Shown here: piece by piece, positions 17,205-36,068 of the stretch
How positions within the stretch are numbered: position 1 is the stretch's first letter
Layout: each line of letters opens with the position of its first letter
Origin: Chitinophagaceae bacterium
Lineage (GTDB): Bacteria; Bacteroidota; Bacteroidia; Chitinophagales; Chitinophagaceae
DNA: 64,000 nt
Reading direction: 5' to 3'
Assembly (NCBI GenBank): GCA_044233655.1
Contig: JBIIJQ010000004.1
Coordinates: 16,079-80,078 of the forward strand
Translations under genes and position numbers: made by a program
Notes under the pieces: generated by a model
The model's database searches: none
What the model was told of the DNA's origin: nothing
What the model saw: the letters and a program-made list of their open reading frames with translations, nothing else

Positions 17205-17255
17205 GGAAAGTTTTTTCATTTTTTTGAAGCTGAGCAATAGATACATTATGTAGCT

Positions 17256-17300
17256 ACTTCGCGCTATCCGTCGCGCACGGCGCTTCCTCCTATCGCGGCT
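17256..17300. repeat. GC-rich palindromic element at the left edge of the island
   Basis: ACTTCGCGCTATCCGTCGCGCACGGCGCTTCCTCCTATCGCGGCT has an inner hairpin CCGT-CGCGC-ACGG and outer arms CGCGCTA / TATCGCG. It is about 65% GC in an AT-rich spacer. Its 3' part resembles the head of the B family. Confidence 0.4.
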
Positions 17301-17439
17301 AAAATTCAGGGACATGTTCTTTATTGAGCTGATGAATGCAAAAGGCTTTGCTTAAAAGCTAAAGTCTTCCATTTATTTACACATTTAAGGATTCTTCAAA
17401 ACTGAATATTATGATTATCAGACGCTATTTTTGATAGCA

Positions 17440-20400
17440 TCAAATTTGACCACCAACCCCTTTAAACTTTTCTACAAACGAAGCAATCTTTTGAAAAACA
17501 CGTTGCTTTAATGTCAAGTATTGAGGATTCAAAGGACTCATTTTTGGTAATATCGTATTGAGTTCTGTTCCGTTTTCACTAGCATATTCACGTTTTAAAG
17601 AAGTAGAAATATATCTCTTTGCTTCTTCTTCGTTTAAATTCTCATCTACAATTAATTCTTTTGCTTCTGTTTTCAATTTGCCTTGTGCATAAGCATAGAA
17701 TGAATCTAAAATAGTTGCTTTATCTTGAATTACATCAAGGTCAGTTTCATTAATAAAATCAATAACCATACTCTCTTTTGCTCTGTTGCCTATACTAGCA
17801 CGAATAACCCTGCGAATTTCTTCTACCAATGCAACTTTATCCTTGGTCTTTTTATTATGCTCAAAAATGAGTTCCAAAATATAATCCAAGTTTATTTCTT
17901 GCGACTTCAATAAATCCACTTCAAACACCACATCATCCCAATCTATTGTTGACGCTTCTGCTTCTTTACCTTGTTTCTCACGCCTTAACCAATCTCGAAT
18001 ATCATTATATGTTGAACGATAATCTTGAATCGTTCTTTCTGGTAGCAATTCAATATTTTGCATTGAAGCTATCTGCTCGTCTGTAACAAAATGAGTTTCT
18101 TTAAATGCTTCAACTGCTTCCTGATCATTGAGGTCAATGCTTTGAAGTGCTTTTAGATTAGTAAATTCATCATAATTCTGTAAGATGTTTTCGACTCGTA
18201 AGTACTCGCCAAATAATTTCGAAAACTCTTTTTTATCTTTTTCAGTAGCAATTTCATCAGGGTTAGGAAACTTTTCATTTAACTCATTTACCAATTCATT
18301 GTATCCTCTGCGAGCTTCACCTGTGGCAATGTCTGTAAAGCCTTCCAAATATTCTTTATAACTTTTTTCAAGCACTACGTTCTTTGTGTTACTATTTCCA
18401 AATAGCGTAATAGCTTCAATGGTTGCTTTTTCTAAATCTCTAAACGTAACAATATTGCCAAAGGTTTTGGTAGCATCATAAATACGATTGGTTCGAGAAA
18501 ATGCTTGTATTAAACCATGATAACGCAAATTCTTATCTACAAAAATGGTATTAAGCTCTGGTGCATCAAAGCCAGTAAGAAACATCCCCACTACAATGAG
18601 AAAGTCTACTTTTTCTTCAGGTGGAAGTTTTTTGTTTTGACTATCTCTTCCTTTTACACGTTTCGCAAGGTCTTTATAGTAGTTCTGAAACTCTTTGCTT
18701 TCAACACCATAATTCATGTTAAACATGACGTTATAGTCATTAATTGCCTTGGTCAGAAACTCTTTAGCACTGCTGTCCATAGCCGAAGGCTCAAAGCTTT
18801 CATCTAAAATTTCACCGATAGCATGTTGTTCTTCGTTAGCAGCAAAAGAAAAGATAGTGGCTATTTTTAGCGGCTTGTCGCTTCCTTTTTGCAAACGATT
18901 AAATTCCTCATAATAACATTTAGCAGCATCCACACTACTCACAGCAAACATGGCATTAAAGCCTATATTACTACCTTGATTTCTTTTTGTTTTATATTTA
19001 TAATTCTGTAAAATATATTTAGAAATTTCAGTAATACGTGCAGGATGCAAAAATGCTTTTTTATTTTCTGCTGCACTTAGTTTCTTTTCATCTTGTTCTT
19101 TTTCTATATCCTTAAACTTTGGTCGCACATCATTGTAGTCAACTTTAAACTTCAATACTTTTTCATCTCTAATGGCATCTGTAATTACATATGAATGCAA
19201 CTCTCTACCAAATACACTGGCTGTAGTTTCAGACCCTAATGCATTTTGTGGAAAGATAGGCGTTCCTGTAAAACCAAATTGATAGAACTTTTTAAATTTT
19301 TTTTGAAGGTTTTGTTGCGCCTCACCAAATTGAGAGCGATGCGCTTCATCAAATATAAATACCACTTGCTTGTTATAGATAGCTAAATCATTTTCACTTT
19401 TCATTAAGTGATTTAGTTTTTGAATCGTAGTGACAATAATTTTATTATCATCTTTTTCAATATTTCGTTTCAAACCTGCTGTACTATCAGAACCATTTAC
19501 ACTATCGGGCGAAAATTTTTGATATTCTTTCATGGTTTGATAGTCTAAATCTTTTCTATCAACCACAAAAAATACTTTATCAATATAATCCAATTGTGTA
19601 GCTAATCGTGCTGCCTTAAAACTGGTTAATGTTTTGCCTGAACCTGTAGTGTGCCATATATAACCACCACCATCAATGCTCGATTGTTTTTTAGCTAAAT
19701 ATGAACTTTCTATTTTCCATAAAATTCGTTCAGTAGCTGCTATTTGATAAGGACGCATTATCAGTAATGTATCGCTCGTGTCAAATACAGAATAAGTAAG
19801 CAATACTTTTAACAGTGTATTTTTCTCAAAAAAGGTTGCTGTGAAATCTTTTAAATCTTTTATCAACGAATTATCTGCCTTTGCCCAATTCATCGTAAAA
19901 TCAAAACTATTTTTATTTCGCTCAACTGTGTTGGCAAAATAACGGCTATCAGTTCCGTTACTAATAACAAAAATTTGTAAGTATTTAAACAATGAATTTT
20001 TACTATTAAAACTCTCTTTGGTATAACGATGCACTTGATTAAACGCTTCACGAATAGCCACCCCTCGTTTTTTGAGTTCTACTTGAACCAATGGCAAACC
20101 ATTCACTAAAATAGTAACATCATATCGGTTGGCATGTTTACCTTTTTGTTCAAATTGGGCAATGACTTGTAGCTTATTACGAGTAATATTTTTCTTATCA
20201 ACTAAATAAATGTTTTGTATACGCCCATTGTCAAACACAAAATCATGAATATAGTTATCATGTATTTTTCTTGTTTTGTCTACCAAGCTATCACTGGGTT
20301 TATCTAAGTATTCCTCCAAAAACCGAGCCCATTCTCCATTGGTAAACTTCATATTATTTAGCGACTGAAGCTGTGTTCTTACATTATCAAACATGGCTTC

Positions 20401-20580
20401 TATGGTAGTAAGGTTAGTAGGGTTTTCATAACCTTGATTTACTAAGTCTTGAATAAACTCACGCTCCAAGGCATACTCTGTTTGATAGACAACAGGTGCT
20501 TCATTCAATTCTGAATGCTTGGTATATTTATCTAGTACGATAAAATTATTGGATTCTGCTATGGTGTTGTATGTGCTCAT
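17440..20580 (-). CDS. hsdR: Type I restriction enzyme R subunit
   Basis: 1046 aa. SF2 helicase motifs [11 protein letters not shown] and [10 protein letters not shown], an N-terminal nuclease region, and co-oriented hsdM/hsdS. Confidence 0.95.
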
Positions 20581-20582
20581 AA

Positions 20583-20633
20583 TGTCTGAACTATGATTTA
20601 TTTGATTCTTGTGATATTTCTGATTTATATTTT
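20583..20633 (+). repeat. TGATT 9-nt-periodic array, left direct copy flanking the GxxExxY gene
   Basis: TGTCTGAACTATGATTTATTTGATTCTTGTGATATTTCTGATTTATATTTT is 41/51 identical to 21032-21082. The first 25 nt match 23/25. GATT recurs every 9 nt. Confidence 0.7.
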
Positions 20634-21010
20634 TTATTCGTTAATCGCTTGAAATTCAAACTCGTTTCTCCAAAATTTATCAATAGTCCAATTTCTAAAT
20701 TGTAAGCTTCTAAATAATTGATTGCTTGTGCAAAGTGCACATCTTCTAATTTTGTAATAGCTTTTAACTCAACAGAAATAATTCCTTCTACTAAAAAATC
20801 TACTCTTCTTGTTCCTATTAGTTGGTTGCGATAAAAAATAGGCATTTCAAATTCTCTGTTAAACGAAATACCCATTTGTAGCATTTCAATTTCTAATGCT
20901 CTTTGATAAATTACTTCTTGAAACCCATTGCCTAATGCTTTATGCACCGTCATTGCACAACCAATTATTTTAGATGTCAATTCAGAATATTTATATTGTT
21001 CGTTTATCAT
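20591..21010 (-). CDS. GxxExxY protein (PD-(D/E)XK-like small protein)
   Basis: 139 aa. Contains [29 protein letters not shown] (GxxExxY motif: GFQEVIY) and ...[13 protein letters not shown]. It is inserted between hsdS and hsdR. Confidence 0.85.
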
Positions 21011-21031
21011 GTACTTTGATTTTGTGTCAAT

Positions 21032-21082
21032 TGTCTCAACTATGATTTGTTTGATTATTTTGATTTATTTGATTTTCATTTT
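21032..21082 (+). repeat. TGATT 9-nt-periodic array, right direct copy
   Basis: TGTCTCAACTATGATTTGTTTGATTATTTTGATTTATTTGATTTTCATTTT, with GATT at 21044, 21053, 21062 and 21071. Confidence 0.7.
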
Positions 21083-21104
21083 TCTTTTCATTTTTTATCA
21101 CTCC

Positions 21105-21140
21105 ATAATCAACCTAATCATATAAATCACAATAATCATA
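21105..21140 (-). repeat. Inverted TGATT (AATC on the plus strand) 9-nt-periodic array
   Basis: TAATCAACC TAATCATAT AAATCACAA TAATCATAG: four units at 9-nt spacing, opposite in polarity to 21044-21074, and overlapping the hsdS stop. Confidence 0.6.
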
Positions 21141-22317
21141 GTTCAGACTTTTTAAACGTCAACAATTTATCCCTATAATACTCATACTGCTGTTTTCTTA
21201 ATGCCATTTCTTTAGGTAAACTCTCACTGATAGACGTAGTGAGCGTATCAAATTTATCGAGTATGGAAACGATGCGTTCTTGTTTTTTTAAAGATGGAAT
21301 GGGGATTTGAATTTTAGCTAACACGTCTTTAGACAGTCGAGGAATACTTGCACGTCGGACTTGTGAAAATATTTTATGATTCTGTGTAAGTAGATAGAAA
21401 TATAAATATCTATTATTGATATTCTTAGGTGTAAGGCATGAAAAAACATCATCGGCAGCCCAATAATCTGCATAACTAAACCCAATTTCTCCCGCTGCAC
21501 CTGCACAAATAACAAATGTTGTATAAGCTTTTACATTACTTTCATGATAATAACCAAGTGGTGTCATAGCATTTTGATAAACAGCATATTTTCCTGTTTC
21601 TTCTAATTGACTTCTTACAAGACGTCTGCCTCGTTGCAGTGTAACAACCTCACCCAACATGTTCCATTCCACTTCACCCTCATTAAAACTAAACAATTGC
21701 TCACGATAAAAGTTATATTGCTGTTTACGAGCTGTAAGTTCTGTGCTTAATGCTGTGCCTAGTTCTGTGGTAAGTGCTGTAAAAGTGTCGAGTATTCGTA
21801 CAATTTCCTTTTGAATGGAAAGGGATGGGATGGGAATTGAAAATCCATTCATAACAGAAGAACTTAAATTATTAATAGTAGAACTATTAAGCATTTCATC
21901 AAGATATTTTTGGAAGAGACTACTAGTTAAAATATGAAACATGAATCGTGGTTCTATTTGTTTTGAACATCTAACAACAGCCATAAAACCACCAAAGAAA
22001 TAATCAAGATCAGAGAAAACAAAAGCGACTTTTCCTACATGTTCACGGCTTCCACTTGCTGCACTAATCAATATGTCATTTTTAAATAGTTTTTGACTTT
22101 CTTTAACTTTGGTGTCAGATTTTATGTATTTAACATCATCAAAATTTAATGTATGTCGTGAAAGTGTGATGTTATTTGCTCTAATTATTTTGTAACCAGT
22201 ATTATTTCCACTTTCATTACTTTTATTATAAGTTAACCCTCGAACATAATCAGCAACTTCCCCTAAACTTTTCCATTCCACTTCAACTCCTTCTAATAAT
22301 TTATTTAATTGACTCAT
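21136..22317 (-). CDS. hsdS: Type I R-M specificity subunit
   Basis: 393 aa. Two target-recognition halves are each followed by a conserved helix ([15 protein letters not shown]...[13 protein letters not shown] and [15 protein letters not shown]...[13 protein letters not shown]). There is a 4-nt overlap with hsdM. Confidence 0.92.
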
Positions 22318-23861
22318 GCTTCAATTTCTTTTACAATGTCATCAATACTCATGCGTAGTGCATTTATTTTTTCAACGGTGGTGGCAATTTCTTCATTTAG
22401 CACGGCAATTTCTACTTGCTCTCTATTATCCTTTGCTTCTACATAGCTGCTTACAGAAAGGTTATAATCGTTTTCGGCAATTTTAGTATTATCTATGCTT
22501 ATGGCTACATGGGCTATATCTTCTTTGCTATCAAAGATTTGCATGATTTGATCAATATGCTTATCCTCAAGCATATTGTTGTTAGTCACTTTTTTAAAAA
22601 AGTCCTCACCACTAGCATCAATAAACTGGGTTTTATTATCGGTTTTCTTTTTAGAAAGTACCAAAAGCGAAACGGCTATACTAGTGCCATAAAACAAATT
22701 GGGTGCTACGGATATAATGGTTTCTACAAAGTTGTTATCTACCAAATATTTTCTAATTTTTTGCTCAGCACCACCACGGTAAAAAATACCGGGGAAACAA
22801 ACAATAGCGGCTCTTCCTTTGCTCGATAAATAACTAAGTGCATGCAATACAAAAGCAAAATCGGCTTTGGATTTCGGAGCCAACACACCAGCAGGTGCAA
22901 ACCTATCATCGTTAATCAACGTAGGATCGCCATCCCCAATCCAATTGACCGAGTAAGGGGGGTTAGAAACAATGGCATCAAAGGGTTTGTCATCGCCAAA
23001 ATTAGGGTTACGAAGCGTATCACCCAATGCAATATTAAATTTGTCGTAGTTCACGTTGTGTAAAAACATATTCATACGAGCCAAGTTGTAAGTAGTATGA
23101 TTTAATTCCTGCCCAAAAAAACCTTCTTCTATAATATGATTATCGAAATGTTTTTTGGCTTGCAACAACAACGAACCCGAACCACAAGCAGGGTCATATA
23201 TTTTGTTTACCTTTTCTTGCTTGTGCATGGCAAGTTGTGCGATGAGTTTAGACACATTTTGTGGTGTAAAAAATTCTCCTCCAGATTTACCTGCGTTGGC
23301 TGCATAATTGCCAATCAAAAATTCGTAGGCATCACCAAAGAGGTCTATTTGATTATCTTCAAAATCACCAAAATCAAGTCCTTCCACACCTTTCAAAACG
23401 GCCGCCAAGCGAAGGTTTTTGCTTTCAACGTTATTGCCAAGTCTTGTACTTGTTGTGTCAAAATCGGCAAACAATCCTTTAATATCTTGTTCTGATGGAA
23501 AACCATTTGCCGAATTTTCAATAGCATCAAAAATATCTTTAAGGTCTGTGTTTAAATTGGCATTGGTATTGCCTGTCTTAGCCACATTTACAAATAGTTG
23601 ACTAGGATATATAAAATAGCCTTTTGTTTTTACGGCATCCTCTTTTATTTCGGAAGTAATTACCTCGTCAGATACGTTTTTGTAGTCCACACTTTCATCA
23701 CCTCCTTCAATGTATATCGAAAAGTTTTCACTTATGAAGCGATAGAATAGGGTCCCTAACACAAACTGTTTAAAATCCCATCCATCTACCGAGCCACGGA
23801 CATCGTTGGCTATCTTCCAAATTTTTGCTTGTAATTCTGCTCTTTGTTGCGTACTTGTCAT
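22314..23861 (-). CDS. hsdM: Type I R-M N6-adenine DNA methyltransferase subunit
   Basis: 515 aa. Contains GEFFTPQNV, AdoMet motif [10 protein letters not shown] and catalytic NPPYS. Confidence 0.95.
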
Positions 23862-23960
23862 TTTTTATCTTTTATTAAGTCTGTTGGTTTTATCTTTATT
23901 TGATTCACAACCGTATAAATTTAAGTTGCTAAGTTAGATTAAATTTTTTATCCTTTGGTT

Positions 23961-24049
23961 TTCCGCCGCAATTGGTGTTATCACCAATTGCTATTAAAAA
24001 ATTGTTGGCAAAAACACCAGCAATGGCGGAAAACCAGCAATGGCGGAAA
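23961..24049 (+). repeat. A-family structured repeat, copy A1
   Basis: TTCCGCC-GCAATTGGTG-TTAT-CACCAATTGC...AACACCAGCAATGGCGGAA. It has a perfect 10-bp inner palindrome (23968-23991), terminal arms TTCCGCC/GGCGGAA, and a 17-nt tandem duplication ACCAGCAATGGCGGAAA x2 (24016-24049). Confidence 0.75.
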
Positions 24050-24252
24050 TAATAGACCAAGAAAAGTCTTGAATATTTAACACCGAACGAATATATTTAC
24101 AAAACTGTTACCATTGATTCTTGAATTCAGCTTTGAATAAATCCTAATGAATTAAAAGGTGAATTAGACCGTACAATAATATTTGAATATGAGTATCTCA
24201 TAAATCAATATATAACTTTTAATAAAATAGGTACTAATTAAAATAGAATAAT

Positions 24253-24735
24253 ATGAAAGAAAATGAAATTGTAATAAATATTTGGTTTATTGTAGATATA
24301 GGAACGAACCTGTGTTATGCTTGGCGCATAAAAGCCTACAACATGCAAGGCTCTGATGATGAAAAATTAAACATTCTAAATCATCTATCTAGTTCAGATT
24401 TTACCACTGTACCTGATAGAAAATTACCTGATACTGCTGTAACTGTATATCCTAACAAAGAAATTAAGGCTTCCTTACCTATTTCTGGTATTAATCATTA
24501 TTTCGAAAGTAATATTGATTATTTTATTACTACACTTGAAAAGGAATTGCCAGTAATCAAAAATATTATTGATAATGAAGTGCAACCCTTAGAGCAAAAA
24601 ATAGTAGATAATCCATTATATACTTCCACTATTGTATTTGAAAATGAAAAAGGCGAAGCAAGAGCATTATTGACCCAAGAGAATAAAATGTGGTATGAAC
24701 TTGAATTGATCAGAATGCAAAATTTGAAAATATAA
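24253..24735 (+). CDS. Hypothetical protein (160 aa, no recognisable domain)
   Basis: An intact ORF with no TM segment or signal peptide, followed by repeat D1. Confidence 0.5.
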   Translation: MKENEIVINIWFIVDIGTNLCYAWRIKAYNMQGSDDEKLNILNHLSSSDFTTVPDRKLPDTAVTVYPNKEIKASLPISGINHYFESNIDYFITTLEKELPVIKNIIDNEVQPLEQKIVDNPLYTSTIVFENEKGEARALLTQENKMWYELELIRMQNLKI

Positions 24736-24756
24736 ATATTAAATAAGGGAATAACC

Positions 24757-24834
24757 CTCTCTCAGAAGGCTATTGTCTTCGTGATGCTTATGTTCCTTAT
24801 TTACCACAGGCAAGTTTGTTGGCTTTGCCAACAC
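24757..24834 (+). repeat. D-family structured repeat, copy D1
   Basis: ...TATGTTCCTTATTTACCACAGGCAAGTTTGTTGGCTTTGCCAACAC is about 75% identical to 32872-32946. It ends in hairpins TGCC-ACA-GGCA (imperfect in D1, which has TACC in the left arm) and GTTGGC-TTT-GCCAAC. Confidence 0.7.
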
Positions 24835-24867
24835 ATAATGCTGTTCGTGGTGAGTATTAATCACTCC

Positions 24868-25071: not shown

Positions 25072-25102
25072 ACGAAATCATGTTAGATAGCGTATTCACT
25101 CC

Positions 25103-28024: not shown

Positions 28025-28128
28025 ATAATGCATGTAACAAACTGTCAAAGCCACTTTACTAACTTTTTTGGTTTTTTGGGTGTAAATTAGCTTCTATATG
28101 TGTGTTGGCAATAAAACAGAACACTAAA

Positions 28129-28545
28129 ATGATTTGGATAATTATTTTTTTTACAGGCTTGATAATTTTAATTGGAACATTTATCCAAAATTCAAAATTG
28201 CGTAACAAATATAATGATGAACTTGACCTTGCTTTAATCACTTTAACGCATTCGACAAATCGAATGGAAGAAATTTCTAAGCCAGTTTTTGAACTAATTT
28301 TGAAACAATATGGCGATAGATTTGCTTCAAATGTAGCCAATAGAAAAATTTGCGAAAAAATGCCATCCGAGCTTTTAATTCTTAGTTGGGGTAAACCTGG
28401 CGACATTAAGTCTGAATATTACAAAGGTTCAAAATCAGAAAGTTGGTTTTATGACAGTTTTGTTAATCGACTTGGCAATAAAAAATATCGAACCGAAGTA
28501 TATATTGAAAATAATAAAATAATTGGTTGGAGAGACTTATCTTAA
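28129..28545 (+). CDS. Membrane-anchored protein with a BamE/SmpA-OmlA-like C-terminal fold (tentative)
   Basis: N-terminal TM segment MIWIIIFFTGLIILIGTFI. The C-terminus reads ...SELLILSWGKPGDIKSEYYKGSKSESWFYD...EVYIENNKIIGWRDL. The track start at 28102 is a GTG. Confidence 0.5.
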   Translation: MIWIIIFFTGLIILIGTFIQNSKLRNKYNDELDLALITLTHSTNRMEEISKPVFELILKQYGDRFASNVANRKICEKMPSELLILSWGKPGDIKSEYYKGSKSESWFYDSFVNRLGNKKYRTEVYIENNKIIGWRDLS

Positions 28546-28549
28546 TATT

Positions 28550-28810
28550 ATGGCAAATTGTAATAACTGTGGATGCTACATCCCAACTAGCGAAAGAGTG
28601 CTAAAAAGAGAAATGTATAGTGGAACTTCCCAAAGAACTAACTATGGAAAACGAATTAGTTTTGGAACTTCACGTTACTATTCTATGAAATCTGTTTGTG
28701 AAAATTGTGCTAGGCAAATAGACCAATCCAATGCAGAGCAAAACAAGACAATAATGGTTGTTCTAATGGTTCTTGGGATTATAATAGCACTTTATTTTTT
28801 GTTAAAGTAA
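28550..28810 (+). CDS. Tail-anchored zinc-ribbon-like protein
   Basis: CNNCGC...CENCARQ (two CxxC pairs) and a C-terminal TM segment IMVVLMVLGIIIALYFLL. The ATG is 4 nt after the upstream stop. Confidence 0.5.
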   Translation: MANCNNCGCYIPTSERVLKREMYSGTSQRTNYGKRISFGTSRYYSMKSVCENCARQIDQSNAEQNKTIMVVLMVLGIIIALYFLLK

Positions 28811-28812
28811 CT

Positions 28813-29982
28813 ATGAAGAATTTTTACGAAGTATTAGGGTTGTATCAAAACGCAACCGATGAAGAAATAAAAACAGCTTACAGAAAGCTATCATTAAAGT
28901 TCCACCCAGACAAAAATGATGGCGATAAATATTTTGAAGAGTGGGCAAAGAAAATAAATGAAGCCTACGAAACTCTTGGCAACAGAGATAAAAAAAAATC
29001 TTATGATGAAACTTTAAAAGCCAACAACAATCAAAAAAGCAATACAAACTCATACAGTTCTCAATCTTCAACATCAAACCACTCTTCTACATATGAATAC
29101 GATGTATTAAGCCAAATTAAAAAACTAACCCCTGAATTTTTAAATGCAAAAGCTGGTTTAGCAGATGCTCAATATAATTACAACAACATAGCGGCACAAT
29201 CCGTTCCAAACAAATTTTCTACAACTAGAATTCTTTTCATTATTTTGTTATTTATAGTATCAGCATTTGGTTTTAAAAAGAGTTTCTTAAATCAGCTGAC
29301 AATAGCAGTAGAAAACATCAAAACTAATGACAGTAAACCTAAATCAAACAAAAAGTCAAAACCTATTTTAGAGGACATTGTTGGTGAGCCAATTGAAAAC
29401 ATAGGAAATTCTATCTTGTACACAATATATAGTGGTGTTGAGCAAAATGAAACCAATGAAATTTACGCAGTTCCAATTGTTGTTTTTTATAACAATCAGT
29501 ATTTAGACCCACCAACTTGTGAATTTGGTACTACTGAACAAAAAGCAATTGATGAATGCGAAAAAGCAAAAGAAATATTATTGCCTTCAGTAAATTCAGG
29601 TTCTACTCTTTTTGTTTTAGACAATGGCAAACAATCATATGACATTAGTGTTTTAGATACTAAAGAATTTGGGTACAGCGACTGGACAAGATATTCAGCT
29701 CACATAAGTATAAAGCCGAAAACATCTATTCTTACAGACAATCCAAAAATTGGTACTAATAGACTTACCACTATTAAAGACAGACCAACTTTACCAAAGC
29801 GAAAAGACCCCGAAGGAAATATTTTAAGCGATAAACTACTTTCAAAAGTTGACATTAATGGAGATGGAATGCCAGAACTTATTTATGAATGTTCAGACTA
29901 CGAAGGGACTTTTTATCAAATATACACCAACAAAAATGGCACTTGGACTCTCGTTTACGAAGGAGGTTATCAAGGAGTTTAA
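28813..29982 (+). CDS. Membrane J-domain (DnaJ-like) protein with an uncharacterised C-terminal domain
   Basis: YEVLGL...EEIKTAYRKLSLKFHPDKN is a J domain with an intact HPD. It is followed by an S/N-rich linker, the TM segment ILFIILLFIVSAFGF, and a C-terminal domain containing DINGDGMPELIY (FG-GAP/VCBS-like). The ATG is 2 nt after the upstream stop. Confidence 0.75.
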   Translation: MKNFYEVLGLYQNATDEEIKTAYRKLSLKFHPDKNDGDKYFEEWAKKINEAYETLGNRDKKKSYDETLKANNNQKSNTNSYSSQSSTSNHSSTYEYDVLSQIKKLTPEFLNAKAGLADAQYNYNNIAAQSVPNKFSTTRILFIILLFIVSAFGFKKSFLNQLTIAVENIKTNDSKPKSNKKSKPILEDIVGEPIENIGNSILYTIYSGVEQNETNEIYAVPIVVFYNNQYLDPPTCEFGTTEQKAIDECEKAKEILLPSVNSGSTLFVLDNGKQSYDISVLDTKEFGYSDWTRYSAHISIKPKTSILTDNPKIGTNRLTTIKDRPTLPKRKDPEGNILSDKLLSKVDINGDGMPELIYECSDYEGTFYQIYTNKNGTWTLVYEGGYQGV

Positions 29983-29997: not shown

Positions 29998-30068
29998 GGT
30001 TGGTGTCCCACCAAACATTCCGTTCTCTTCGAGTCTTCAGCTTCTGGGACACGGCGATTTAAGAAACG
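29998..30068 (+). repeat. Composite repeat: C-family left arm (C1) fused to B-family copy B3
   Basis: GGTTGGTGTCCCACCAAACA (contains TTGGTG-TCC-CACCAA), then TTCCGTTCTCTTCGAGTC-[TTCAGCTTCTGG]-GACACGGCGATTTAAGAAACG. Confidence 0.75.
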
Positions 30069-30218
30069 TCGTCATGAATTAAGTTCTCGTGTATTCAATT
30101 ATGATCTTATTTTATCTTTACTTCATGACAGGTGGCACATAACATGAAAAATGTTGACTTTGATTGCAAGTAGCATGTCGATTATAAAAATTGATAGTCA
30201 AAAATTTATTTCCATGCT

Positions 30219-30262
30219 GCAAGCCGCGGAGTCCCCTAGGCGGGAGACTATGCGGGACGAAA
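30219..30262 (-). repeat. B-family repeat, copy B4 (minus orientation)
   Basis: The reverse complement reads TTCGTCCCGCATAGTC-[TCCCGCCTAGGG]-GACTCCGCGGCTT. It lies just downstream of the minus-strand RCC1 gene. Confidence 0.7.
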
Positions 30263-30300
30263 TAACATAGGAAATTTTTTACATAGAAATTTCATTTATT

Positions 30301-31671
30301 CTATTCCTTAATTAATTTAAAAACCTTATTCTCTAATTTGATAAAATAAATCCCTTTTTTCAAAGTACTTACTTGCACTGGTGAATTAAAATAGAATATT
30401 CCCGACTGAATTATTTGGCCTAATGAATTTGCTATTTCATATTTGATATCTTCATTTTGGTATAAACCATAGACAGATAATTCATTAGTAAAAGGATTCG
30501 GATATAATATAATTTTTCCGTCGGAAATATTGTGAATGTAACTGGGAGAACAATTTAAGGTATTTATTATTGCAGGCATATAATGGTTAACATTAGTGCC
30601 ATCACCAAGTGAACCATAAAAATTTTGGCCCCAGGACCACAGCGTACCATCTTGTCGAACGGCAAAGGAATGAGTGCTACCTCCACTAACTGACACCCAA
30701 TTGCTTGTAATGCCTATTAATGTGGGAACATTTTTATCTAGTTGTGTACCATCGCCAAGACGACCTTCATTATTATAACCCCACGCCCAAAGTGTACCGT
30801 CTTGTTTAATCGCAAGAGAATGATGGATGCCCGCGCTTAGACTTTGCCAATTTGTAGCTACTCCAATGTGAGTAGGAATATACTTTTCAGCATTAGTACC
30901 ATCACCGAGCTCACCGTAAAAGTTCAGGCCCCAAGCCCACAGTGTACCATCTTGCTTGATAGCAAGTGAATGGTTATTTCCGCCGCTTATAGATTTCCAA
31001 TTTGTGTCTAAACTTATTTGAGTCGGCATATTTCTATCGATGTTTGTGCCATCTCCGAGCTTCCCTCCAGCATTATTGCCCCACGCCCAAAGTGAACCGT
31101 CTTGTTTAATAGCAAGAGAATGACGGATGCCTGCACTTATACTTTGCCAATTGCTGCCAATTCCTATTTGAGTTGGAATAATTTTGTCTAAATTTGTGCC
31201 ATCCCCGAGTTGTCCATAAGAATTATTACCCCAAGACCACAAGGTGCCGTCTTGTTTAATTGCGAGTGAGTGACCATTTCCGGCACTAATTTGTTGCCAG
31301 TTAGTATCCATACCTATTTGAGTTGGTATATTCTTATCTATATAAGTACCATCTCCTAAGCGACCATCAGCGTTATGTCCCCAAGCCCATAAGGTACCAT
31401 CATGCTTAATTGCGAGAGAAAACCCATTGCCAGCGCTAACATATTTCCAATTATTATCTACCCCAATTTGGGTTGGAACGTTTTTATTAACATAGGTGCC
31501 ATCTCCTAACTCCCCATAAATATTGCCACCCCAAGCCCAAAGAGTACTGTCATTTTTGATTGCAAGAGAATAGAATTGACCTGCATCAATATATCGCCAA
31601 CATTGCGCTTTTACTTTGCCCCCTATTATCAATAAAAAGTAACAAAGAATAATTTGTAAAATGTATTTCAT
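30301..31671 (-). CDS. RCC1-repeat beta-propeller protein with a T9SS type A C-terminal sorting domain
   Basis: Seven or more repeats of the form HSLAIKQDGTLWAWGxNxxGxLGDGT. Signal peptide from the ATG at 31671 (MKYILQIILCYFLL). C-terminus YPNPFTNELSV...GIYFIKL. Confidence 0.85.
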   Translation of the reverse strand: MKYILQIILCYFLLIIGGKVKAQCWRYIDAGQFYSLAIKNDSTLWAWGGNIYGELGDGTYVNKNVPTQIGVDNNWKYVSAGNGFSLAIKHDGTLWAWGHNADGRLGDGTYIDKNIPTQIGMDTNWQQISAGNGHSLAIKQDGTLWSWGNNSYGQLGDGTNLDKIIPTQIGIGSNWQSISAGIRHSLAIKQDGSLWAWGNNAGGKLGDGTNIDRNMPTQISLDTNWKSISGGNNHSLAIKQDGTLWAWGLNFYGELGDGTNAEKYIPTHIGVATNWQSLSAGIHHSLAIKQDGTLWAWGYNNEGRLGDGTQLDKNVPTLIGITSNWVSVSGGSTHSFAVRQDGTLWSWGQNFYGSLGDGTNVNHYMPAIINTLNCSPSYIHNISDGKIILYPNPFTNELSVYGLYQNEDIKYEIANSLGQIIQSGIFYFNSPVQVSTLKKGIYFIKLENKVFKLIKE

Positions 31672-31852
31672 ATTTAAAATGTTTTTATTTTTTTTCAATT
31701 GTACTATCTTATTATTTTTTTGCGGGTAGTTTAGATGAACTTTTAAATATAAACAATTATATTGTATCTCAGCATTCATACCTAATAAATTTTTGCCATA
31801 GCTAAAGTTAACCCATTAAATAATCTAGCCCCGAACTATCTTCTTTTGAGCT

Positions 31853-31908
31853 TCCGTTCTCGCCGTGTCTCCAGCCTCTGGGACTTTGCGACTTAGAAAA
31901 CGAAATCG
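31853..31908 (+). repeat. B-family repeat, copy B2 (orphan; no plus-strand ORF precedes it)
   Basis: About 93% identical to B1 over 56 nt, with weaker similarity (about 60%) over roughly 25 further nt. The inner stem is partly degraded (GACTTTGCG). Confidence 0.8.
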
Positions 31909-32096
31909 CAATTGCATTCCACTTATAGAATGATTATGTATTTTTATTTATCATTACTGAATGGCAGTACGAAAAAAATACCTTATCAAATTGGCATTTT
32001 TTTTTATTACATATTTAATATGAAAGATATTAATTATGATCATAGGCTAGTAGCATAAAATGAATAAATGTCCACAAAATATAAGGATGAACATAT

Positions 32097-32148
32097 CGTT
32101 CGGCGAGTCGCGGAGTCCCCGAGGCGAGAGAGTCCGCGAGGATAGAAG
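32097..32148 (-). repeat. B-family repeat, copy B5 (minus orientation)
   Basis: The reverse complement reads CTTCTATCCT-CGCGGACTC-[TCTCGCCTCGGG]-GACTCCGCG-ACTCGCCGAACG. It abuts the stop of the minus-strand gene 32150-32767. Confidence 0.75.
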
Positions 32149-32149
32149 T

Positions 32150-32767
32150 CTAGTCTTTAAAGTCTTTAAAAGCCCTTTCATTATTATTTATACCCAAATA
32201 GATATAATGTAAAGTGTTTACTCTTTGTTCAATAATTTCATTCACGTTAGGCCAAATATACAGCAACGAATTAGCCAAACCGGTACTATACAATCCTAAG
32301 AGAAAATCCTTTTCCTTAGTATAGTAATCCAACCATCTACGTTGAGAAATGATCAACTGCTTTTTATATTCTTCACTTAATATACCCAATGCTAACTTGT
32401 AGTATTTATTTAATAAAAGATCATATGCATTGTTGTAAAAAATAAATCCTTCATTTTGTGCCTGTGCTGAAGTGCCTTCTGCAATAATCTTATAGAATGC
32501 ATTAATAGAAATTGTGTCCTCCATAAACACAAAATCTTCTCCATCATTATCTTTTGACAAAGAGCTACTCTTTATCTTAATATCTTTACGAGTAGTTGCG
32601 ATAATATTCTTCAAGTCTACGTTTGAATAATCCTTAAAACTGGTAGTATTTGTAAATAAAACCTCTATATCAGAATTAAATTGATTTATAGGCTTAGTTT
32701 GAGAGATGACTGATTCCGAAACCATAAATAAAATAGAAAAACATAAAATTCGAATATTTACTTTCAT
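32150..32767 (-). CDS. DUF1311/LprI-like (lysozyme-inhibitor-type) secreted protein
   Basis: Signal peptide MKVNIRILCFSILFMVSESVISQ (the track ORF extends to 32824). LLNKYYKLALGILSEEYKKQLIISQRRWLDYYTKEKDF fits the LN..Y......L......L...Q..W..Y pattern of DUF1311. Confidence 0.55.
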   Translation of the reverse strand: MKVNIRILCFSILFMVSESVISQTKPINQFNSDIEVLFTNTTSFKDYSNVDLKNIIATTRKDIKIKSSSLSKDNDGEDFVFMEDTISINAFYKIIAEGTSAQAQNEGFIFYNNAYDLLLNKYYKLALGILSEEYKKQLIISQRRWLDYYTKEKDFLLGLYSTGLANSLLYIWPNVNEIIEQRVNTLHYIYLGINNNERAFKDFKD

Positions 32768-32871
32768 GCTTTCTGATTCCGAAAATTTCATAATAGTTGG
32801 TTTTAATAATACAAATGTATACAAGGTTTAAAACAAATGCAATTACATTTTTCATTTTGATAGAATCACCA

Positions 32872-32946
32872 TCTCTCCGAAGTTTATGGCTTAGTGAGGT
32901 CTATGTTCCCTGTTTGCCACAGGCATTTAGTTGGCTTTGCCAACAT
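32872..32946 (+). repeat. D-family structured repeat, copy D2
   Basis: ATCTCTCCGAAG...TATGTTCCCTGTTTGCCACAGGCATTTAGTTGGCTTTGCCAACAT. Confidence 0.7.
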
Positions 32947-33081
32947 TACTTGCATTTCATCTAGAGTGTTTAATTTATTCCAAATAATTTACTTTTCGAT
33001 TGGTTTTATTTATCTTCGATTGACGCAGTCGATTGAGTTTTTTCACAGACTGAGGTTGTACGGTTAATAGAAAATAACGAC

Positions 33082-33852
33082 ATGAGCAAGAAAACAATAA
33101 TTGATTCGATTATAGTGATATTGACATTTTCGATTGCCTTTTATGGTAAACGGATACTGGCTGAATATTATACTATTTCCATTTCTTCTGCGTATTTGAA
33201 AATTGCCTATTCGTATTTATGGTGGGTATTACCAACAGCATTAATTACCGGTCTATTATACGGAGTCAGTAATATATTTTACAATATCGGTATTCAAACA
33301 GGCCTTATCAGAGGGCTTTTATTTTCAATTATAACAGTATTGCCTATGTTTCTGAGCTCTGCTATCATTGGACGCATAGGTGCAGATTTAAATGTGTTAC
33401 ATCTGGTTCATCAAACAATTGTTGCAGGGTTGATGGAGGAATATCTTTTTAGAGGTTTTTTATTTGGATTATTATTCAGAAAATTAGGCTGGGGATTTAT
33501 TCCTGCTTCAATATTAGGTGCCTTTATTTTCGGATTAGGACATATTTATCAAGGCTCTACGTTTCTGGAAACCATGGGGGTCTTTTTCATAACTTCAATT
33601 GGGGGTGTTTGGTTTGCATGGTTATACATTGAATGGAATAATAACTTATGGGTTCCCATTTTCCTTCATATTCTAATGAATCTTTCCTGGGGATTGTTTG
33701 AAGTAAGTAGTAACGCATTGGGAGGATTTTATACAAACCTGTTTAGAATAATTACAATTGCGTTAACAATAATAATAACCATTAAATACAATCAGAAAAA
33801 AGGATTAAGAATCAACAGCAAGAATTTGATGGTAAACAATAACAACCGCTAA
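33082..33852 (+). CDS. CPBP family intramembrane glutamic endopeptidase (CAAX protease/Abi family)
   Basis: 256 aa, polytopic. Contains the EEYLFRGFLF, FGLGHIYQG and HILMN motifs. Confidence 0.85.
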   Translation: MSKKTIIDSIIVILTFSIAFYGKRILAEYYTISISSAYLKIAYSYLWWVLPTALITGLLYGVSNIFYNIGIQTGLIRGLLFSIITVLPMFLSSAIIGRIGADLNVLHLVHQTIVAGLMEEYLFRGFLFGLLFRKLGWGFIPASILGAFIFGLGHIYQGSTFLETMGVFFITSIGGVWFAWLYIEWNNNLWVPIFLHILMNLSWGLFEVSSNALGGFYTNLFRIITIALTIIITIKYNQKKGLRINSKNLMVNNNNR

Positions 33853-34147: not shown

Positions 34148-34789
34148 ATGACAAAATACTTCATCATATTTATTCTAATTCTTACTTCTTGTGATAATAG
34201 AAAGACAGAACAAAACTTTATTATACCTAGTAATGAAGAAGTAGGAAAAATTATTGAAGCTATTATTTATTCAAATAGTTTGTCATTGTCAAGTCAAATA
34301 TTCAAAGTAGAAATTGACAAAGTAAACAAACCGAAAAGAAAGAATTGGATACCAATCTATACTCCAATGTCAGTGGACTTGAGGAAACTTCATGTTGCTT
34401 TACCAGATAAAGGGGTAAAGGTGCAACCATTAGACATGAACATTGTGTTGATTCCTAGACTCTTTAAAATTGATGGAATAGGAAAGGAATTTATAGACCA
34501 TGCGGACTCATCATATTTATTGTTCCAAAATGAAGCAATTACAGAGTTTAGAATTAGTGATGAATTAGCAAGAAAGTTAAATACCACAAATTCTATTGAA
34601 CAAGAGAATAAAAGAAGCAAAGGAGAAAGCTACAGGTTTTATGAATTGACGATTCCTATTTTATCATCTGATATGAATAAGGCTTACGTAGAATTAACTC
34701 TATATAGTTCGAGAGCAGAAGCTCTATATTTGGAAAAAATAAATTATAAATGGACAATTATACGTAGAATTGGACTATGGATATGCTGA
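34148..34789 (+). CDS. Hypothetical lipoprotein
   Basis: 213 aa with lipobox ILILTSC. No recognisable domain. Confidence 0.55.
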   Translation: MTKYFIIFILILTSCDNRKTEQNFIIPSNEEVGKIIEAIIYSNSLSLSSQIFKVEIDKVNKPKRKNWIPIYTPMSVDLRKLHVALPDKGVKVQPLDMNIVLIPRLFKIDGIGKEFIDHADSSYLLFQNEAITEFRISDELARKLNTTNSIEQENKRSKGESYRFYELTIPILSSDMNKAYVELTLYSSRAEALYLEKINYKWTIIRRIGLWIC

Positions 34790-34885
34790 CAAAAACTGTA
34801 GGTAACACTTTGCAATAGCAAGCTGGACTTTGTAGCTTTTCAATCATTTGGTTCTTTAATAATCTTTTGTACTTTTACAAAGCTT

Positions 34886-34927
34886 TTGTTCTCTGAACTC
34901 CCAGCCTTCTGCAGCAAAGGAACCGTT
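34886..34927 (+). repeat. Degenerate B-family repeat, copy B6
   Basis: TTGTTCTCTGAACTCCCAGCCTTCTGCAGCAAAGGAACCGTT retains the head GTTCTC and the loop motif TCCCAGCCTTCTGC. Confidence 0.45.
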
Positions 34928-34956
34928 AGGCACAATTACAAAAACCGAAACTACAG

Positions 34957-35919
34957 ATGGATAGTAAGAAAATAATAACTACAGCAAAAATTATAGCCAT
35001 ACCGACAATATATGCATTGTTGTTAAGAACAGTTTTTGGAGAATCAACATGGAGTGGAGTTTTCAATATGATGTCAAAAACATTTCTTTTTCTCTTGCCT
35101 TCAATTGTTGGTGCTTTGACAATATACTTTTCCAAAGAAGAAAAAGTTAGAAAATTTTCATACAGATTTTTTATTCCTTGGATACCGATTTTTGTATTTT
35201 TCTTTATAACACTTGCTTTTGGAATTGAAGGTTGGCCATGTTTGCTAATGATATTACCAATCTTTTTACTTGCTTCTTCTATTGGTGGACTTGTTGGTGG
35301 ATATTTTAAGCTTAAAAAGAAAGACAATAATTTATATATTTCTGTATTGACACTTTTGCCATTATTAGTATCACCAATTGAAAACTATATAGGTGCGAAT
35401 TCGACACCTTATAAAGCATACACATACATTGACATAAATGCACCCGTTGAAAAAATTTGGGACAATGTTACACGAGTTAGAGAAATAAGTAAAGAACAAG
35501 ACAAAGGTTGGTTGACAAATTTATTAAACTTTCCAAGACCAGTTAAAGCAGAATTAAACTATGAAGGAGTTGGTGCCTATAGAGAAGCGATTTTTACAAA
35601 TGGACTTGTTTTTCATGAGACAGTTACTGAATATATTGACAATAAGAAAATGTCATTTACAATTAAAGCGCTTCCACACGAAATTCCTTTAACAACTATG
35701 GACGAACATTTGATAATTGGTGGAAAATATTTTGACGTGTTAAATGGTACGTATGAACTTGAAAAATTAAATAACAAAACTTGCAGACTTCATTTATGGA
35801 GTAACTTCAAGTTGACAACAACGTTTAATTTTTATGCAAGTTGGTGGGCAAATAACATAATGAAAGATATTCAAAACAATATTTTGCAAATTGAAAAACA
35901 AAGAGCGGAGCATGAATAA
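34957..35919 (+). CDS. Membrane protein with a C-terminal SRPBCC (START/polyketide-cyclase-like) domain
   Basis: 320 aa with about four N-terminal TM helices. Then YTYIDINAPVEKIWDNVTRVREI..., the typical opening of SRPBCC domains. Confidence 0.6.
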   Translation: MDSKKIITTAKIIAIPTIYALLLRTVFGESTWSGVFNMMSKTFLFLLPSIVGALTIYFSKEEKVRKFSYRFFIPWIPIFVFFFITLAFGIEGWPCLLMILPIFLLASSIGGLVGGYFKLKKKDNNLYISVLTLLPLLVSPIENYIGANSTPYKAYTYIDINAPVEKIWDNVTRVREISKEQDKGWLTNLLNFPRPVKAELNYEGVGAYREAIFTNGLVFHETVTEYIDNKKMSFTIKALPHEIPLTTMDEHLIIGGKYFDVLNGTYELEKLNNKTCRLHLWSNFKLTTTFNFYASWWANNIMKDIQNNILQIEKQRAEHE

Positions 35920-35989
35920 AATATCTGTACCTGACATGGGTAACTGATACCCAACTCCATTTTCAAAAACAGAAAAATCCTTTTCTATT

Positions 35990-36040
35990 GGATGGTTTCC
36001 CACCAAACATTATTTGGATTTTATTTGGTGGTCACCAACC
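35990..36040 (+). repeat. C-family hairpin repeat, copy C3 (right edge of the island)
   Basis: GGATGGTTTCCCACCAAACATTATTTGGATTTTATTTGGTGGTCACCAACC contains the perfect TTGGTG-GT-CACCAA. Confidence 0.75.
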
Positions 36041-36068
36041 GATAGGTAAAAACTTGTACTAAGTTATC

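Follow-up and report, generated by a model that had tools for sequence, protein, structure and literature searches.

The 18.9-kb interval between birA and a BNR-propeller gene of an uncultured Bacteroidota bacterium is probably a lineage-specific accessory island at a permissive junction, in which relics of a REP/RAYT system make up the spacer repeats and do not act as cassette recombination sites. We analysed the island within a 64-kb stretch of DNA (the window). It is an ordinary island of the accessory or defence type, seeded with REP/RAYT debris.

An accessory island between two convergent core genes

The island (17205–36068) separates two convergent core genes, birA (+) and the BNR-propeller gene (−), and is bounded by their stop codons. 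In the relatives L070/L071 and L080 the BNR gene (65% and 70% identical to that of the window, respectively) directly adjoins birA with a 4-nt overlap, and the flanking synteny is collinear and the same as in the window. Because these relatives show an empty site within collinear synteny, the 18.9 kb is an insertion between two core genes. The sister lineage L069 has different content at the same BNR junction, where it carries a RAYT gene (tblastn E 6e-39; NCBIfam 1.8e-13); its contig stops inside this gene, leaving the far side unseen. An island at this position had been proposed in a first-pass annotation, and the empty sites bear it out. That annotation had also rightly described the flanks as housekeeping-like: they consist of housekeeping genes, and strong stem-loop plus T-tract terminators were confirmed at 41011, 43787, 45470 and 55966. 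No recombinase or transposase was found in the flanks. No recombinase was found in the whole 64 kb either, as it had stated. It had further suggested scoring presence/absence and cassette turnover among relatives; the former is seen in L070/L071 and L080, whereas no turnover was seen across 11 metagenome contigs from independent samples, all with identical gene order. Three metagenome contigs break at 33015–33040, in or near repeat G.

The island is headed by a Type I R-M operon (17440–23861, −) of hsdR (17440–20580), a PDDEXK_3 gene (20591–21010), hsdS (21136–22317) and hsdM (22314–23861), already recognised at first pass and confirmed by Pfam matches (N6_Mtase 2.9e-115, Methylase_S 5.6e-51, PDDEXK_3 3.8e-38, HSDR_N/ResIII/EcoR124_C). 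Next come a 160-aa ORF (24253–24735, +), with no match in Pfam, NCBIfam, PHROGs or PADLOC, and a higher-GC module (24858–26870) that holds a partial duplicate of the 3′ end of its HTH gene (24858–25027), an HTH_26 gene (25103–25444, −), eight 21-nt tandem repeats (25552–25720), a 325-aa ORF (25833–26810, +) and a terminator hairpin (26832–26868) with which repeat F starts. The same module of HTH gene, 21-nt tandem array and 316-aa ORF adjoins an MmeI-type R-M gene in another genome (L087–L091). Further along lie two small ORFs of 136 and 133 aa (27053–27845, +), for which profile searches gave no family; three ORFs (28102–29982, +) of 147 aa, 95 aa and 389 aa, the last a DnaJ-domain protein (Pfam DnaJ 4e-22); an RCC1-repeat protein with a type IX secretion C-terminal sorting domain (30301–31779, −; Pfam RCC1 1.8e-83, Por_Secre_tail 2.2e-9); a 224-aa secreted or lipoprotein-like ORF (32150–32824, −) with a weak LprI-like match below cut-off (Pfam LprI 0.0049); a CPBP/Rce1-like intramembrane protease (33082–33852, +; Pfam Rce1-like 1.2e-17); and a 213-aa lipoprotein-like ORF (34148–34789, +), to which profile searches again assigned no family. 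The last gene (34957–35919, +) encodes a 320-aa SRPBCC-like membrane protein of patchy distribution and high conservation: its homologues in Dyadobacter, Pseudopedobacter and Ginsengibacter share 86–87% amino acid identity and lie in unrelated contexts, and the gene has clearly moved between orders. The homologues in other orders are not accompanied by the repeats of the island, and nucleotide similarity stops at the ORF edge. Canonical stem-loop plus T-tract terminators, present after flank genes, are absent after the island genes.

Family B and RAYT genes in other Bacteroidota

Family B is a 30-nt bulged hairpin, in which a stem of 9 bp is followed by a bulged T, three more base pairs and the loop GCCTC. 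Genome matches fell in Bacteroidota in 55 of 58 cases, across Cytophagales, Chitinophagales and others. The 101 distinct copies align gap-free and 77 of them are intergenic; the stem is supported by compensatory changes across these copies (87% of cells paired, double changes at nine pairs, and none of 500 shuffles equally good). RAYT genes or fragments adjoin the hairpin in 22 of the 55 Bacteroidota loci. Six loci (L014, L023, L038, L039, L059 and L067) have intact RAYT ORFs, placed between hairpins or next to them and carrying the motifs PNHLH and YIHxNP. All of these match NCBIfam NF047646 (REP-associated tyrosine transposase; E 1e-11 to 2e-33); that of L059 scores above the curated cut-off and also matches Pfam Y1_Tnp. 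The best PDB match of the RAYT profile was TnpA-REP (4ER8, E 2.8e-7), and in other genomes two inverted B copies flank an intact RAYT gene. A search for a RAYT or IS200-type Y1 transposase had been suggested at first pass, and it was this check that held the answer. These data show that a REP-RAYT system of the Bacteroidota has family B as its REP hairpin.

Copies that fit the exact pattern number 1–8 per genome under this strict definition, far below classical REP systems. The 30-nt core is near-identical across orders, whereas the RAYT proteins are only 53–62% identical; REPs normally co-diverge with their RAYT, and the cross-order identity of the core is therefore unusual. Genes beside B in other genomes are diverse and include ordinary metabolic and housekeeping genes, and the orientation of the hairpin relative to its upstream gene is random (27 same versus 24 opposite, n=51). 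An IS110 element sits inside one B hairpin of L021, an insertion showing that such hairpins attract other mobile DNA.

Family B copies in the window

A covariance model run with filters off counted exactly five B copies in the window, all within 27.8–32.2 kb (27850, 30015, 30213(−), 31849 and 32097(−)). A sixth copy, 'B6' at 34886, was rejected: the model did not detect it (E>10) and it folds like shuffled sequence (z +0.9). B1 (27850–27935, +; 50.3 bits, E 1.9e-13) combines a solo REP hairpin with the left-hand flank of a relic RAYT element and is cut short by A2; it is 95% identical to 31852–31908 (compared from 27853). The other four copies are the ends of two inverted doublets of ~260–300 nt. 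One doublet (30015–30270, +) has hairpins at 30015–30068 (+) and 30213–30266 (−), scoring 20.3 and 42.5 bits, keeps in its interior the RAYT C-terminal remnant HNMKNVDFDCK, and aligns over its full length with 31840–32160 and with L021 2370–2680. The other (31849–32150, +), with hairpins at 31849–31902 (+) and 32097–32150 (−), retains MAVRKKYLIKLAFFFIT (from 31961) of the N-terminal codons and YIFNMKDINYDHRLV (32008–32052) of the C-terminal ones and is 84% identical over 281 nt to L021 2389–2663; window positions 32017–32142 match the 3′ end and hairpin of the intact RAYT gene of L067 at 77% identity (E 1.7e-22). These alignments show the doublets to be deletion derivatives of RAYT elements, with only the first and last codons left. 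The hairpin at 31849/31852 closes no gene, and no RAYT remnant of the L069 type was detectable in the window.

Distribution and structure of the spacer repeats

Repeats occupy nearly every spacer of 24–36 kb. Of the 13 island spacers, 8 are connected by seven repeat links; the 24 flank spacers have one link among them. The first-pass claim that the repeats are restricted to the island within the 64 kb held, since none of them recurred elsewhere in the window; an A-core-like palindrome lies at 59449–59468. Of the four families then distinguished, A and D stand with two copies each; B has five copies instead of six; C has three, one of them (C1) a half-arm; and families E, F and G had been missed. 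The description of the repeats as structured sites applies to A1, C2, C3 and D1, the only clearly structured copies by fold z-score, but not to several others with decayed folds (z −1.3 to −2.4 for B copies, +0.65 for B3, −0.4 for A2). Most repeat copies in the window are structurally decayed, and none matched Rfam.

A1 (23950–24052) is a nested palindrome of about 80 nt that carries a terminal duplication of 17 nt; as DNA it folds at −28.7 kcal/mol (z −6.9). It is 90% identical to 27936–27995; its decayed copy A2 (27936–28010) gives the 90% match to 23960. D1 (24745–24860, +), weakly structured at z −2.8, is 87% identical over 45 nt to 32902–32945 (match pair 24789/32902) in D2 (32860–32960). 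D2 and G (32988–33057) together occupy 32860–33057 (+), and G is 86% identical over 71 nt to L053 251–321, a copy 85 nt from a B hairpin. The C copies match one another (29989/33937/35980): C1 (29989–30018, +) is the left half-arm only, directly abutted by B, C2 (33937–34004; −15.6 kcal/mol, z −4.1) is a complete hairpin with arms of ~24 nt, and C3 (35980–36047; z −2.8) lies 21 nt from the BNR stop codon. The counterpart of C3 in L021 is 18 nt away from the stop of metH, and L069 has a remnant of C adjoining the BNR stop. Repeat E (17225–17340, +), about 120 nt directly after the birA stop, is 74% identical to L069 5720–5860 and matches L021 3220–3357 (nhmmer E 2.6e-22). In both loci E and the C hairpin form a composite beside a core-gene stop, which in L069 adjoins the RAYT gene at the BNR junction. 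Repeat F (26832–27040, +) consists of the terminator hairpin and some 170 nt of non-coding sequence that is conserved; it is 75% identical to L021 260–440, where the flanking genes are non-homologous. L021 shares F, B, E and C with the window as non-coding modules, and the genes around these are non-homologous. Besides B, the families A, C, D, E, F and G are palindromic or non-coding repeats of restricted lineage. We regard the spacer repeats as relics of small selfish or domesticated DNA elements; no relatives of A and D were found in any sequence searched, so for these two families we infer this origin.

Origin of the island and its repeats

In the account we favour, the island has built up where the 3′ ends of two convergent core genes abut. 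It carries the Type I R-M system, the small module of HTH gene, tandem repeats and unknown ORF, and about ten orphan or patchily distributed genes. Of B there remain the two internally deleted RAYT relics and the truncated end at 27850–27935. By analogy with E. coli TnpA-REP and IS608, the hairpin would have spread by RAYT-catalysed single-strand cleavage and joining, and would persist in the island because long, non-essential spacers tolerate it. Why seven repeat families should be concentrated in a single island is explained only loosely by this account.

RAYT elements may also have driven the building of the island: an element made of the C–E composite, a RAYT gene and an inverted copy would first have colonised the birA/BNR junction, and its REP hairpins would then have served as entry or recombination points, so that the island grew inside and its genes became bracketed by REPs. 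L069, in which BNR is directly followed by a C remnant, by E and by a RAYT gene, fits this course, as do C3 and a junction segment abutting BNR in the window, an inverted junction segment and E abutting birA, the REP and deleted-RAYT relics of the interior, and the IS110 insertion in L021. However, the inverted terminal similarity is short and A/T-rich and may reflect chance or a terminator-like sequence, the contig of L069 stops within the RAYT gene, the window lacks an L069-type remnant, and we know of no mechanism by which RAYTs capture passenger genes; we consider this course unlikely. Still less likely, though compatible with the relic account, is an exapted role at the RNA level, in which the repeats would be retained to terminate transcription or stabilise mRNA for foreign genes that are weakly integrated. 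The lack of canonical terminators after island genes, the position of B1, C2 and C3 directly 3′ of ORFs, and reports that REPs influence termination and mRNA stability in other bacteria (PMC3733652) argue for it; the random orientation elsewhere, the copies that are decayed or not 3′ of any gene (31849, A1, D2) and the absence of an Rfam match argue against.

At first pass the repeats had been read as structured sites closing cassettes, and the arrangement had been likened to integrons and Bacteroidales immunity arrays. Recombination sites of mobile cassettes, served by a recombinase encoded elsewhere, would fit repeats confined to the spacers of 24–36 kb, several of them within 8–40 nt of a stop codon, the L021 modules and the between-order movement of 34957–35919. 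Yet the 64 kb holds no recombinase, gene orientation is mixed, the R''/L''...L'/R' box geometry is absent, and many copies have lost their structure, unlike attC sites. B is instead a RAYT-flanking REP, with four of its five copies ending deleted RAYT elements, one (31849) closing no gene and 'B6' nonexistent; elsewhere it stands in random orientation beside diverse, ordinary genes. Nor do the repeat-free homologues of 34957–35919, where similarity stops at the ORF, or the constant gene order of the 11 contigs suit such an array. Neither the proposed grammar nor the likeness survives these results, and the cassette reading, already largely refuted, is very improbable.

Comparison with known systems

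Like an integron array, the island has short ORF units split by structured repeats and promoter-poor orphan genes, but it lacks intI, attI, Pc and attC geometry, and its genes are of mixed orientation, its repeats of several unrelated and decayed families, its order without visible turnover. With the rAID (recombinase-associated acquired interbacterial defence) arrays that Ross et al. reportedly described in Bacteroidales in 2019 it has in common that small orphan genes and repeated intergenic sequence form an accessory array in a member of the Bacteroidota; it differs in having no head recombinase, genes that are not co-oriented, repeats explained by REP/RAYT, and no recognised immunity domains, the only candidate being the sub-threshold LprI match. 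It resembles integration hotspots and defence islands as a single large indel in collinear core synteny, with different content in a sister lineage and a cargo of R-M, orphan genes and mobile-element debris, although its edges showed no integrase, tRNA or direct-repeat att sites.

[quoted passage not shown] B likewise is an imperfect palindrome, short and with one base bulged, that occurs between genes in multiple copies and often as inverted doublets, and the gene between inverted hairpins encodes an HUH/Y1 transposase of about 200 aa with the motifs NH[LV]H and YIHxNP, closest to TnpA-REP in the PDB and named REP-associated tyrosine transposase in NCBIfam. IS110-family insertion into REP hairpins, as in L021, has been described for Pseudomonas (PMC12288879). 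The differences are that nothing but relics is present in the window, namely two RAYT elements with internal deletions and a single truncated end, that the B core is far more uniform across orders than the RAYT proteins, and that apparent copy number per genome is low; the B doublets, with 250–320-nt spacers, are RAYT deletion derivatives and not classical short REPINs. CGTC-tagged REPs have been reported in Bacteroidetes (Di Nocera et al., 2013; PMC3733652), and B resembles them in a (C/T)GTC motif just 5′ of the stem in most copies, a 5-nt loop and head-to-head dimers. In B, however, the tag lies 2–3 nt from the stem, the CCA tail is absent, the stem has 12 bp plus a bulge (versus 8–9 bp) and starts with CG (versus AT), and there is a dedicated transposase, whereas CGTC REPs were reported without one (PMC3733652). 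The conspicuous repeats of this island are best seen as a known selfish-DNA system, REP hairpins with their RAYT, in decay, and not as a new integron-like cassette machine.

A variable junction between birA and the BNR-propeller gene

The window (GC content about 34%) comes from an uncultured Bacteroidota bacterium and encodes type IX secretion (T9SS) cargo; the closest named homologues of its BNR protein are from Chitinophagaceae. The first-pass annotation had described an accessory island with a Type I restriction-modification (R-M) system between housekeeping flanks, and the gene content bears this out. The left flank encodes YqeY, GldC, PorP/SprF, NifU, RpoN, DUF349, GDH, FtsH, RsfS and birA, and the right flank the BNR/sortilin propeller, MORN, an amidohydrolase, T9SS cargo, MurB, GcvP and DnaK. 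Between them, at 17205-36068, lie a complete Type I R-M operon, in which a PDDEXK_3 gene is embedded, and about a dozen small ORFs. The domains recognized in island ORFs are HTH_26, DnaJ, RCC1 with a T9SS tail, a CPBP/Rce1-like protease, a weak LprI and a weak SRPBCC; the remaining island ORFs had no match in Pfam, NCBIfam, PHROGs or PADLOC. We found no tRNA or tmRNA genes and, by eye, no convincing direct repeats at the island edges. A blastn search with 23.9-30.3 kb gave no match among plasmids and only a DnaJ-domain match among phages.

The birA-to-BNR alignment across relatives, which the first-pass annotation had proposed, was then informative. In L070 and L071 (BNR 65% identical) and in L080 (70%) the two genes adjoin convergently with a 4-nt overlap, and the gene order of L070 agrees with that of the window on both sides over more than 20 kb. 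Because birA and BNR abut in these relatives, the ancestral junction is taken to be empty, and the 18.9 kb of the window occupies it. Another relative, L069 (BNR 75% identical), carries yet other DNA after BNR, so that the interval shows the presence/absence polymorphism between conserved core genes that characterizes a genomic island. The locus is near-identical in JGI, ENA and Logan metagenome contigs, and gene order is unchanged in 11 contigs of independent samples, which agree at 99% identity or more; the island is fixed within the metagenome-sampled population. At a different site in L070, an IS1595-family transposase (5356-6045) lies between two T9SS cargo genes; the equivalent position in the window is uninterrupted.

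Repeat families in the island spacers

Comparing every island spacer with the whole window by blastn-short recovered families A (two copies), B, C (three) and D (two), and none of them outside the island, as had been noticed by eye for the 64 kb. Of the 13 island spacers (3,560 bp), 8 are joined by seven repeat links; the 24 flank spacers (3,770 bp) have a single link among them and are also shorter and lower in GC. The original inventory held for A, C and D, but C1 is a half arm only, B has five copies rather than six, and three families had been missed: E (17225-17340), F (26832-27040) and G (32988-33057). A covariance model built from family B found, with filters off, exactly five window copies, all within 27.8-32.2 kb and scoring 20-52 bits. 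It did not detect the supposed 'B6' at 34886, whose fold does not surpass that of shuffled sequence. Structural decay affects many copies; a fold clearly superior to the shuffles is confined to A1, C2, C3 and D1. Rfam held no family for any repeat at gathering or E-value thresholds.

Independent metagenome contigs of the locus repeatedly end at repeats, namely at 30058 (B3), 32103 (B5), 33015-33040 (G, three contigs) and 35995 (C3). Such breaks are what additional copies elsewhere in the genome would produce, and they hint at such copies. A palindrome at 59449-59468, CAATTGGTGTAACACCAAT, resembles the inner palindrome of A (CAATTGGTGTTATCACCAATTG); the likeness may reflect a shared protein-binding motif or chance. 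It lies upstream of a 1485-aa ORF with PKD-like domains that continues past the window end and contains eleven tandem 240-nt (80-aa) repeats (61209-63960).

Family B is a REP hairpin associated with RAYT genes

Family B has the canonical sequence CGCAGAGTC-T-CCC GCCTC GGG GACTCTGCG. A strict pattern for its core matched 58 loci in the genome collection, 55 of them in Bacteroidota (Chryseolinea, Ohtaekwangia, Cyclobacteriaceae, other Cytophagales, Chitinophagales and unclassified MAGs); the other three were GC-rich coding coincidences. The 101 distinct copies align without gaps on a stem of 9 bp, a bulged T and 3 bp. Compensatory changes support this stem at five or more positions, which exceeds every shuffle and slid control. 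Inverted pairs are frequent and 77 of the 101 copies are intergenic. B is thus a short imperfect palindromic hairpin, repeated and mainly intergenic, as expected of a REP. A tetranucleotide guide, GTAG or CGTC, was sought 5' of the stem, where we found the consensus TTnnGTCnC (T9 in at least 90%) and a tag offset by 2-3 nt that reads CGTT in the window copies. The 30-nt REP core is essentially identical from Cytophagales to Chitinophagales (alignment A4, loci L011-L068), whereas the flanking RAYT proteins share only 53-62% identity with one another. A literature search with the hairpin sequence found no paper, and scans of viral contigs for A, D and B gave zero matches each.

The genes beside B are diverse. 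In the 110 nearest ORFs, 117 different Pfam families are represented (for example IMPDH, dehydrogenases, transporters and sigma factors); among the families listed there was no recurrent recombinase and none was common to more than three ORFs. B points the same way as its nearest upstream gene in 27 cases and the opposite way in 24; as this orientation is random, we dropped a directional role at the RNA level as the main explanation.

The first-pass annotation had also suggested searching relatives for a RAYT or IS200-type Y1 transposase, and one was indeed found. A search for HUH/Y1 motifs revealed intact ORFs (PNHLH ... YIHxNP) between or beside B hairpins in six loci. In L038, hairpins at 2056(+) and 2815(-) flank an ORF at 2195-2794; L023 has the same geometry, and L039, L059, L067 and L014 are arranged likewise. 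All six ORFs match NCBIfam NF047646 (REP-associated tyrosine transposase; E 1e-11 to 2e-33), that of L059 above the curated cut-off and with a Pfam Y1_Tnp match too, and the best match of a six-ORF profile is E. coli TnpA-REP (PDB 4ER8, E 2.8e-7). Pfam Y1_Tnp missed four of five RAYT-like ORFs tested, so that NCBIfam, PDB profile searches and motif matching were needed. By tblastn, 22 of the 55 loci have RAYT genes or fragments adjoining their hairpins.

One of the B hairpins, in the MAG locus L021, is interrupted by an IS110-family element (968-2420; transposase 1049-2140, Pfam DEDD_Tnp_IS110 and Transposase_20), which splits it into a left half TTCCGTTCTCGCAGAG| and a right half |AGTCTCCAGCC. 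A Flammeovirgaceae MAG that is not related to it (L062 1730-1783) likewise has this IS end (AAACATAGG|AGTCTCC) directly against a hairpin. Since it meets hairpins in two unrelated genomes, the IS appears to target the B REP specifically. IS110 elements target REPs in Pseudomonas and E. coli.

Window B pairs as deleted RAYT elements

The two inverted B pairs of the window (30005-30275 and 31840-32160) are homologous over their full length to each other and to L021 2370-2680. The second pair keeps a RAYT start, MAVRKKYLIKLAFFFIT (compare MAVRREMPEYDGIYFIT in L014), and a RAYT end, YIFNMKDINYDHRLV (compare HVMNMKDINFDKREIK in L067), and its right 125 nt (32017-32142) match the 3' end plus hairpin of the intact RAYT in L067 with 77% identity (E 1.7e-22). 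The first pair (30015-30270) retains HNMKNVDFDCK, and B1 (27850-27935) is a truncated left end that A2 abuts. By the covariance scores and these alignments, the window copies belong to the RAYT-flanking hairpin family, and the pairs are internally deleted RAYT elements; RAYT genes between inverted hairpins occur in the other genomes, and the window has relics only. A classical DDE-type MITE would also have inverted ends, as here, but the interior of the pairs derives from the RAYT gene and there is no flanking direct repeat, inspection by eye having found no convincing target-site duplications. An internally deleted RAYT element between two genes leaves each neighbor with one outward-pointing hairpin, which dissolves the apparent cassette grammar.

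Many doublets of 250-320 nt in other genomes (for example L026 2961-3307 and 5403-5748) keep the first 46 RAYT codons. Such doublets make up a class of deletion-derivative mini-elements.

Other repeat families and the island edges

L021 (MAG RE-26jul17-130) and L069 also have families C and E; in both, a composite of C hairpin, short junction segment and E stands immediately after a core-gene stop, that of metH in L021 and of BNR in L069. A RAYT gene follows the composite in L069, a sister lineage in which RAYT thus occupies the same BNR junction. In the window, BNR is directly bordered by C3 with the junction segment, and birA by an inverted junction segment with E, a thin hint that the island grew inside an element of this kind. 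F is common to the window and L021, around non-homologous genes, and G to the window and L053, there near a B hairpin. Profiles run with nhmmer found no relatives of A or D in about 600 kb of comparison loci. A metagenome scan with the left arm of C gave eight coding coincidences and no hairpins, so that C is lineage-restricted or not represented in that collection.

Individual island genes

The 320-aa product of 34957-35919, a membrane protein that is weakly SRPBCC-like, has homologues in Dyadobacter, Pseudopedobacter and Ginsengibacter (86-87% aa identity) and in Sphingobacterium (80%). At 86-87%, the identity is far above that of the core BNR protein (roughly 50-65%), so the gene has been transferred horizontally. 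In the first three genomes it stands alone in unrelated contexts, nucleotide similarity ends at the ORF ends and there is no C hairpin; the gene therefore does not travel with the repeat. Its conservation is unusually high and its distribution patchy, always as a single gene and each time in other surroundings.

A three-part module at 24858-26870 comprises a divergent HTH_26 gene, a tandem array of about eight 21-nt repeats and an ORF of 316-325 aa without known family, for which there are only 16 homologue clusters. The module recurs in L087 (9215-10951) and in L088-L091, with the Type I R-M system nearby in the window and, in another organism, an MmeI-type R-M gene immediately adjacent. The 21-nt arrays share one architecture but differ in sequence, suggesting that they are operators or iterons that co-evolve with the HTH protein. 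The first 170 nt of the region (24858-25027) are a partial duplicate of the HTH gene 3' end. Within 30301-31779, a 150-nt periodicity at 30574-31571 corresponds to its seven RCC1 repeats.

Discussion

The first-pass annotation had likened the island to an integron cassette array and to the recombinase-associated immunity-gene arrays of Bacteroidales, noting that no recombinase was visible. That observation stands for the ORFs scanned across the 64 kb: neither island ORFs of at least 100 aa nor the larger flank ORFs have a Phage_integrase, other recombinase or transposase domain. An integron would have intI with adjacent attI and Pc, and one co-oriented attC per cassette with R''-L''...L'-R' boxes (RYYYAAC...GTTRRRY outermost) and extrahelical bases. 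By inspection no family has outer R boxes; in C a GTTAGGT motif adjoins the loop. Orientation is mixed, several families are involved and the copies are decayed. Cassettes would be gained, lost or permuted, and the 11 independent-sample contigs have identical gene order; a gene would travel with its site, and homologues of 34957-35919 occur in three other genomes without the repeats. With the B pairs read as deleted RAYT elements, the integron-like interpretation is not supported. The Bacteroidales arrays, in which a conserved recombinase heads co-oriented immunity genes, fare no better as a model, given the lack of a recombinase, the mixed orientation and a sub-threshold LprI as the only immunity-domain match.

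We favor, with good confidence, the reading of the interval as an ordinary accessory, defense-type island at a permissive junction of convergent genes, whose spacers hold REP-RAYT debris and other small palindromic repeats. A more elaborate history, which we consider improbable, is that a RAYT element took the birA/BNR junction first, as in L069, that B and C-E hairpins then served as points of entry or recombination, and that accessory genes accumulated inside, bracketed by REPs. If true, the island would have formed by RAYT seeding, and a REP hairpin that is phylum-wide and unusually conserved would act as portable homology.

On the favored reading, the island itself is a hotspot-type accessory region of the ordinary kind, and the tempting idea of a new, integron-like type of element in Bacteroidota is removed as a false lead. 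REP/RAYT debris can mimic a cassette grammar, two deleted RAYT elements between genes sufficing to give each neighboring gene a "closing" hairpin. The by-product is a concrete REP hairpin for Bacteroidota RAYTs, conserved across orders, with deletion-derivative mini-elements and an apparent role as an IS110-family target; its description may serve work on REPINs, RAYTs and IS110 target choice. Loci of the L038 type match the classical layout of REP-RAYT systems, a RAYT flanked by REPs, and fit the description of RAYT subclass 2.6, which is mostly found in Bacteroidetes and whose flanking atypical secondary structures recur elsewhere in the genome (PMC6006769).
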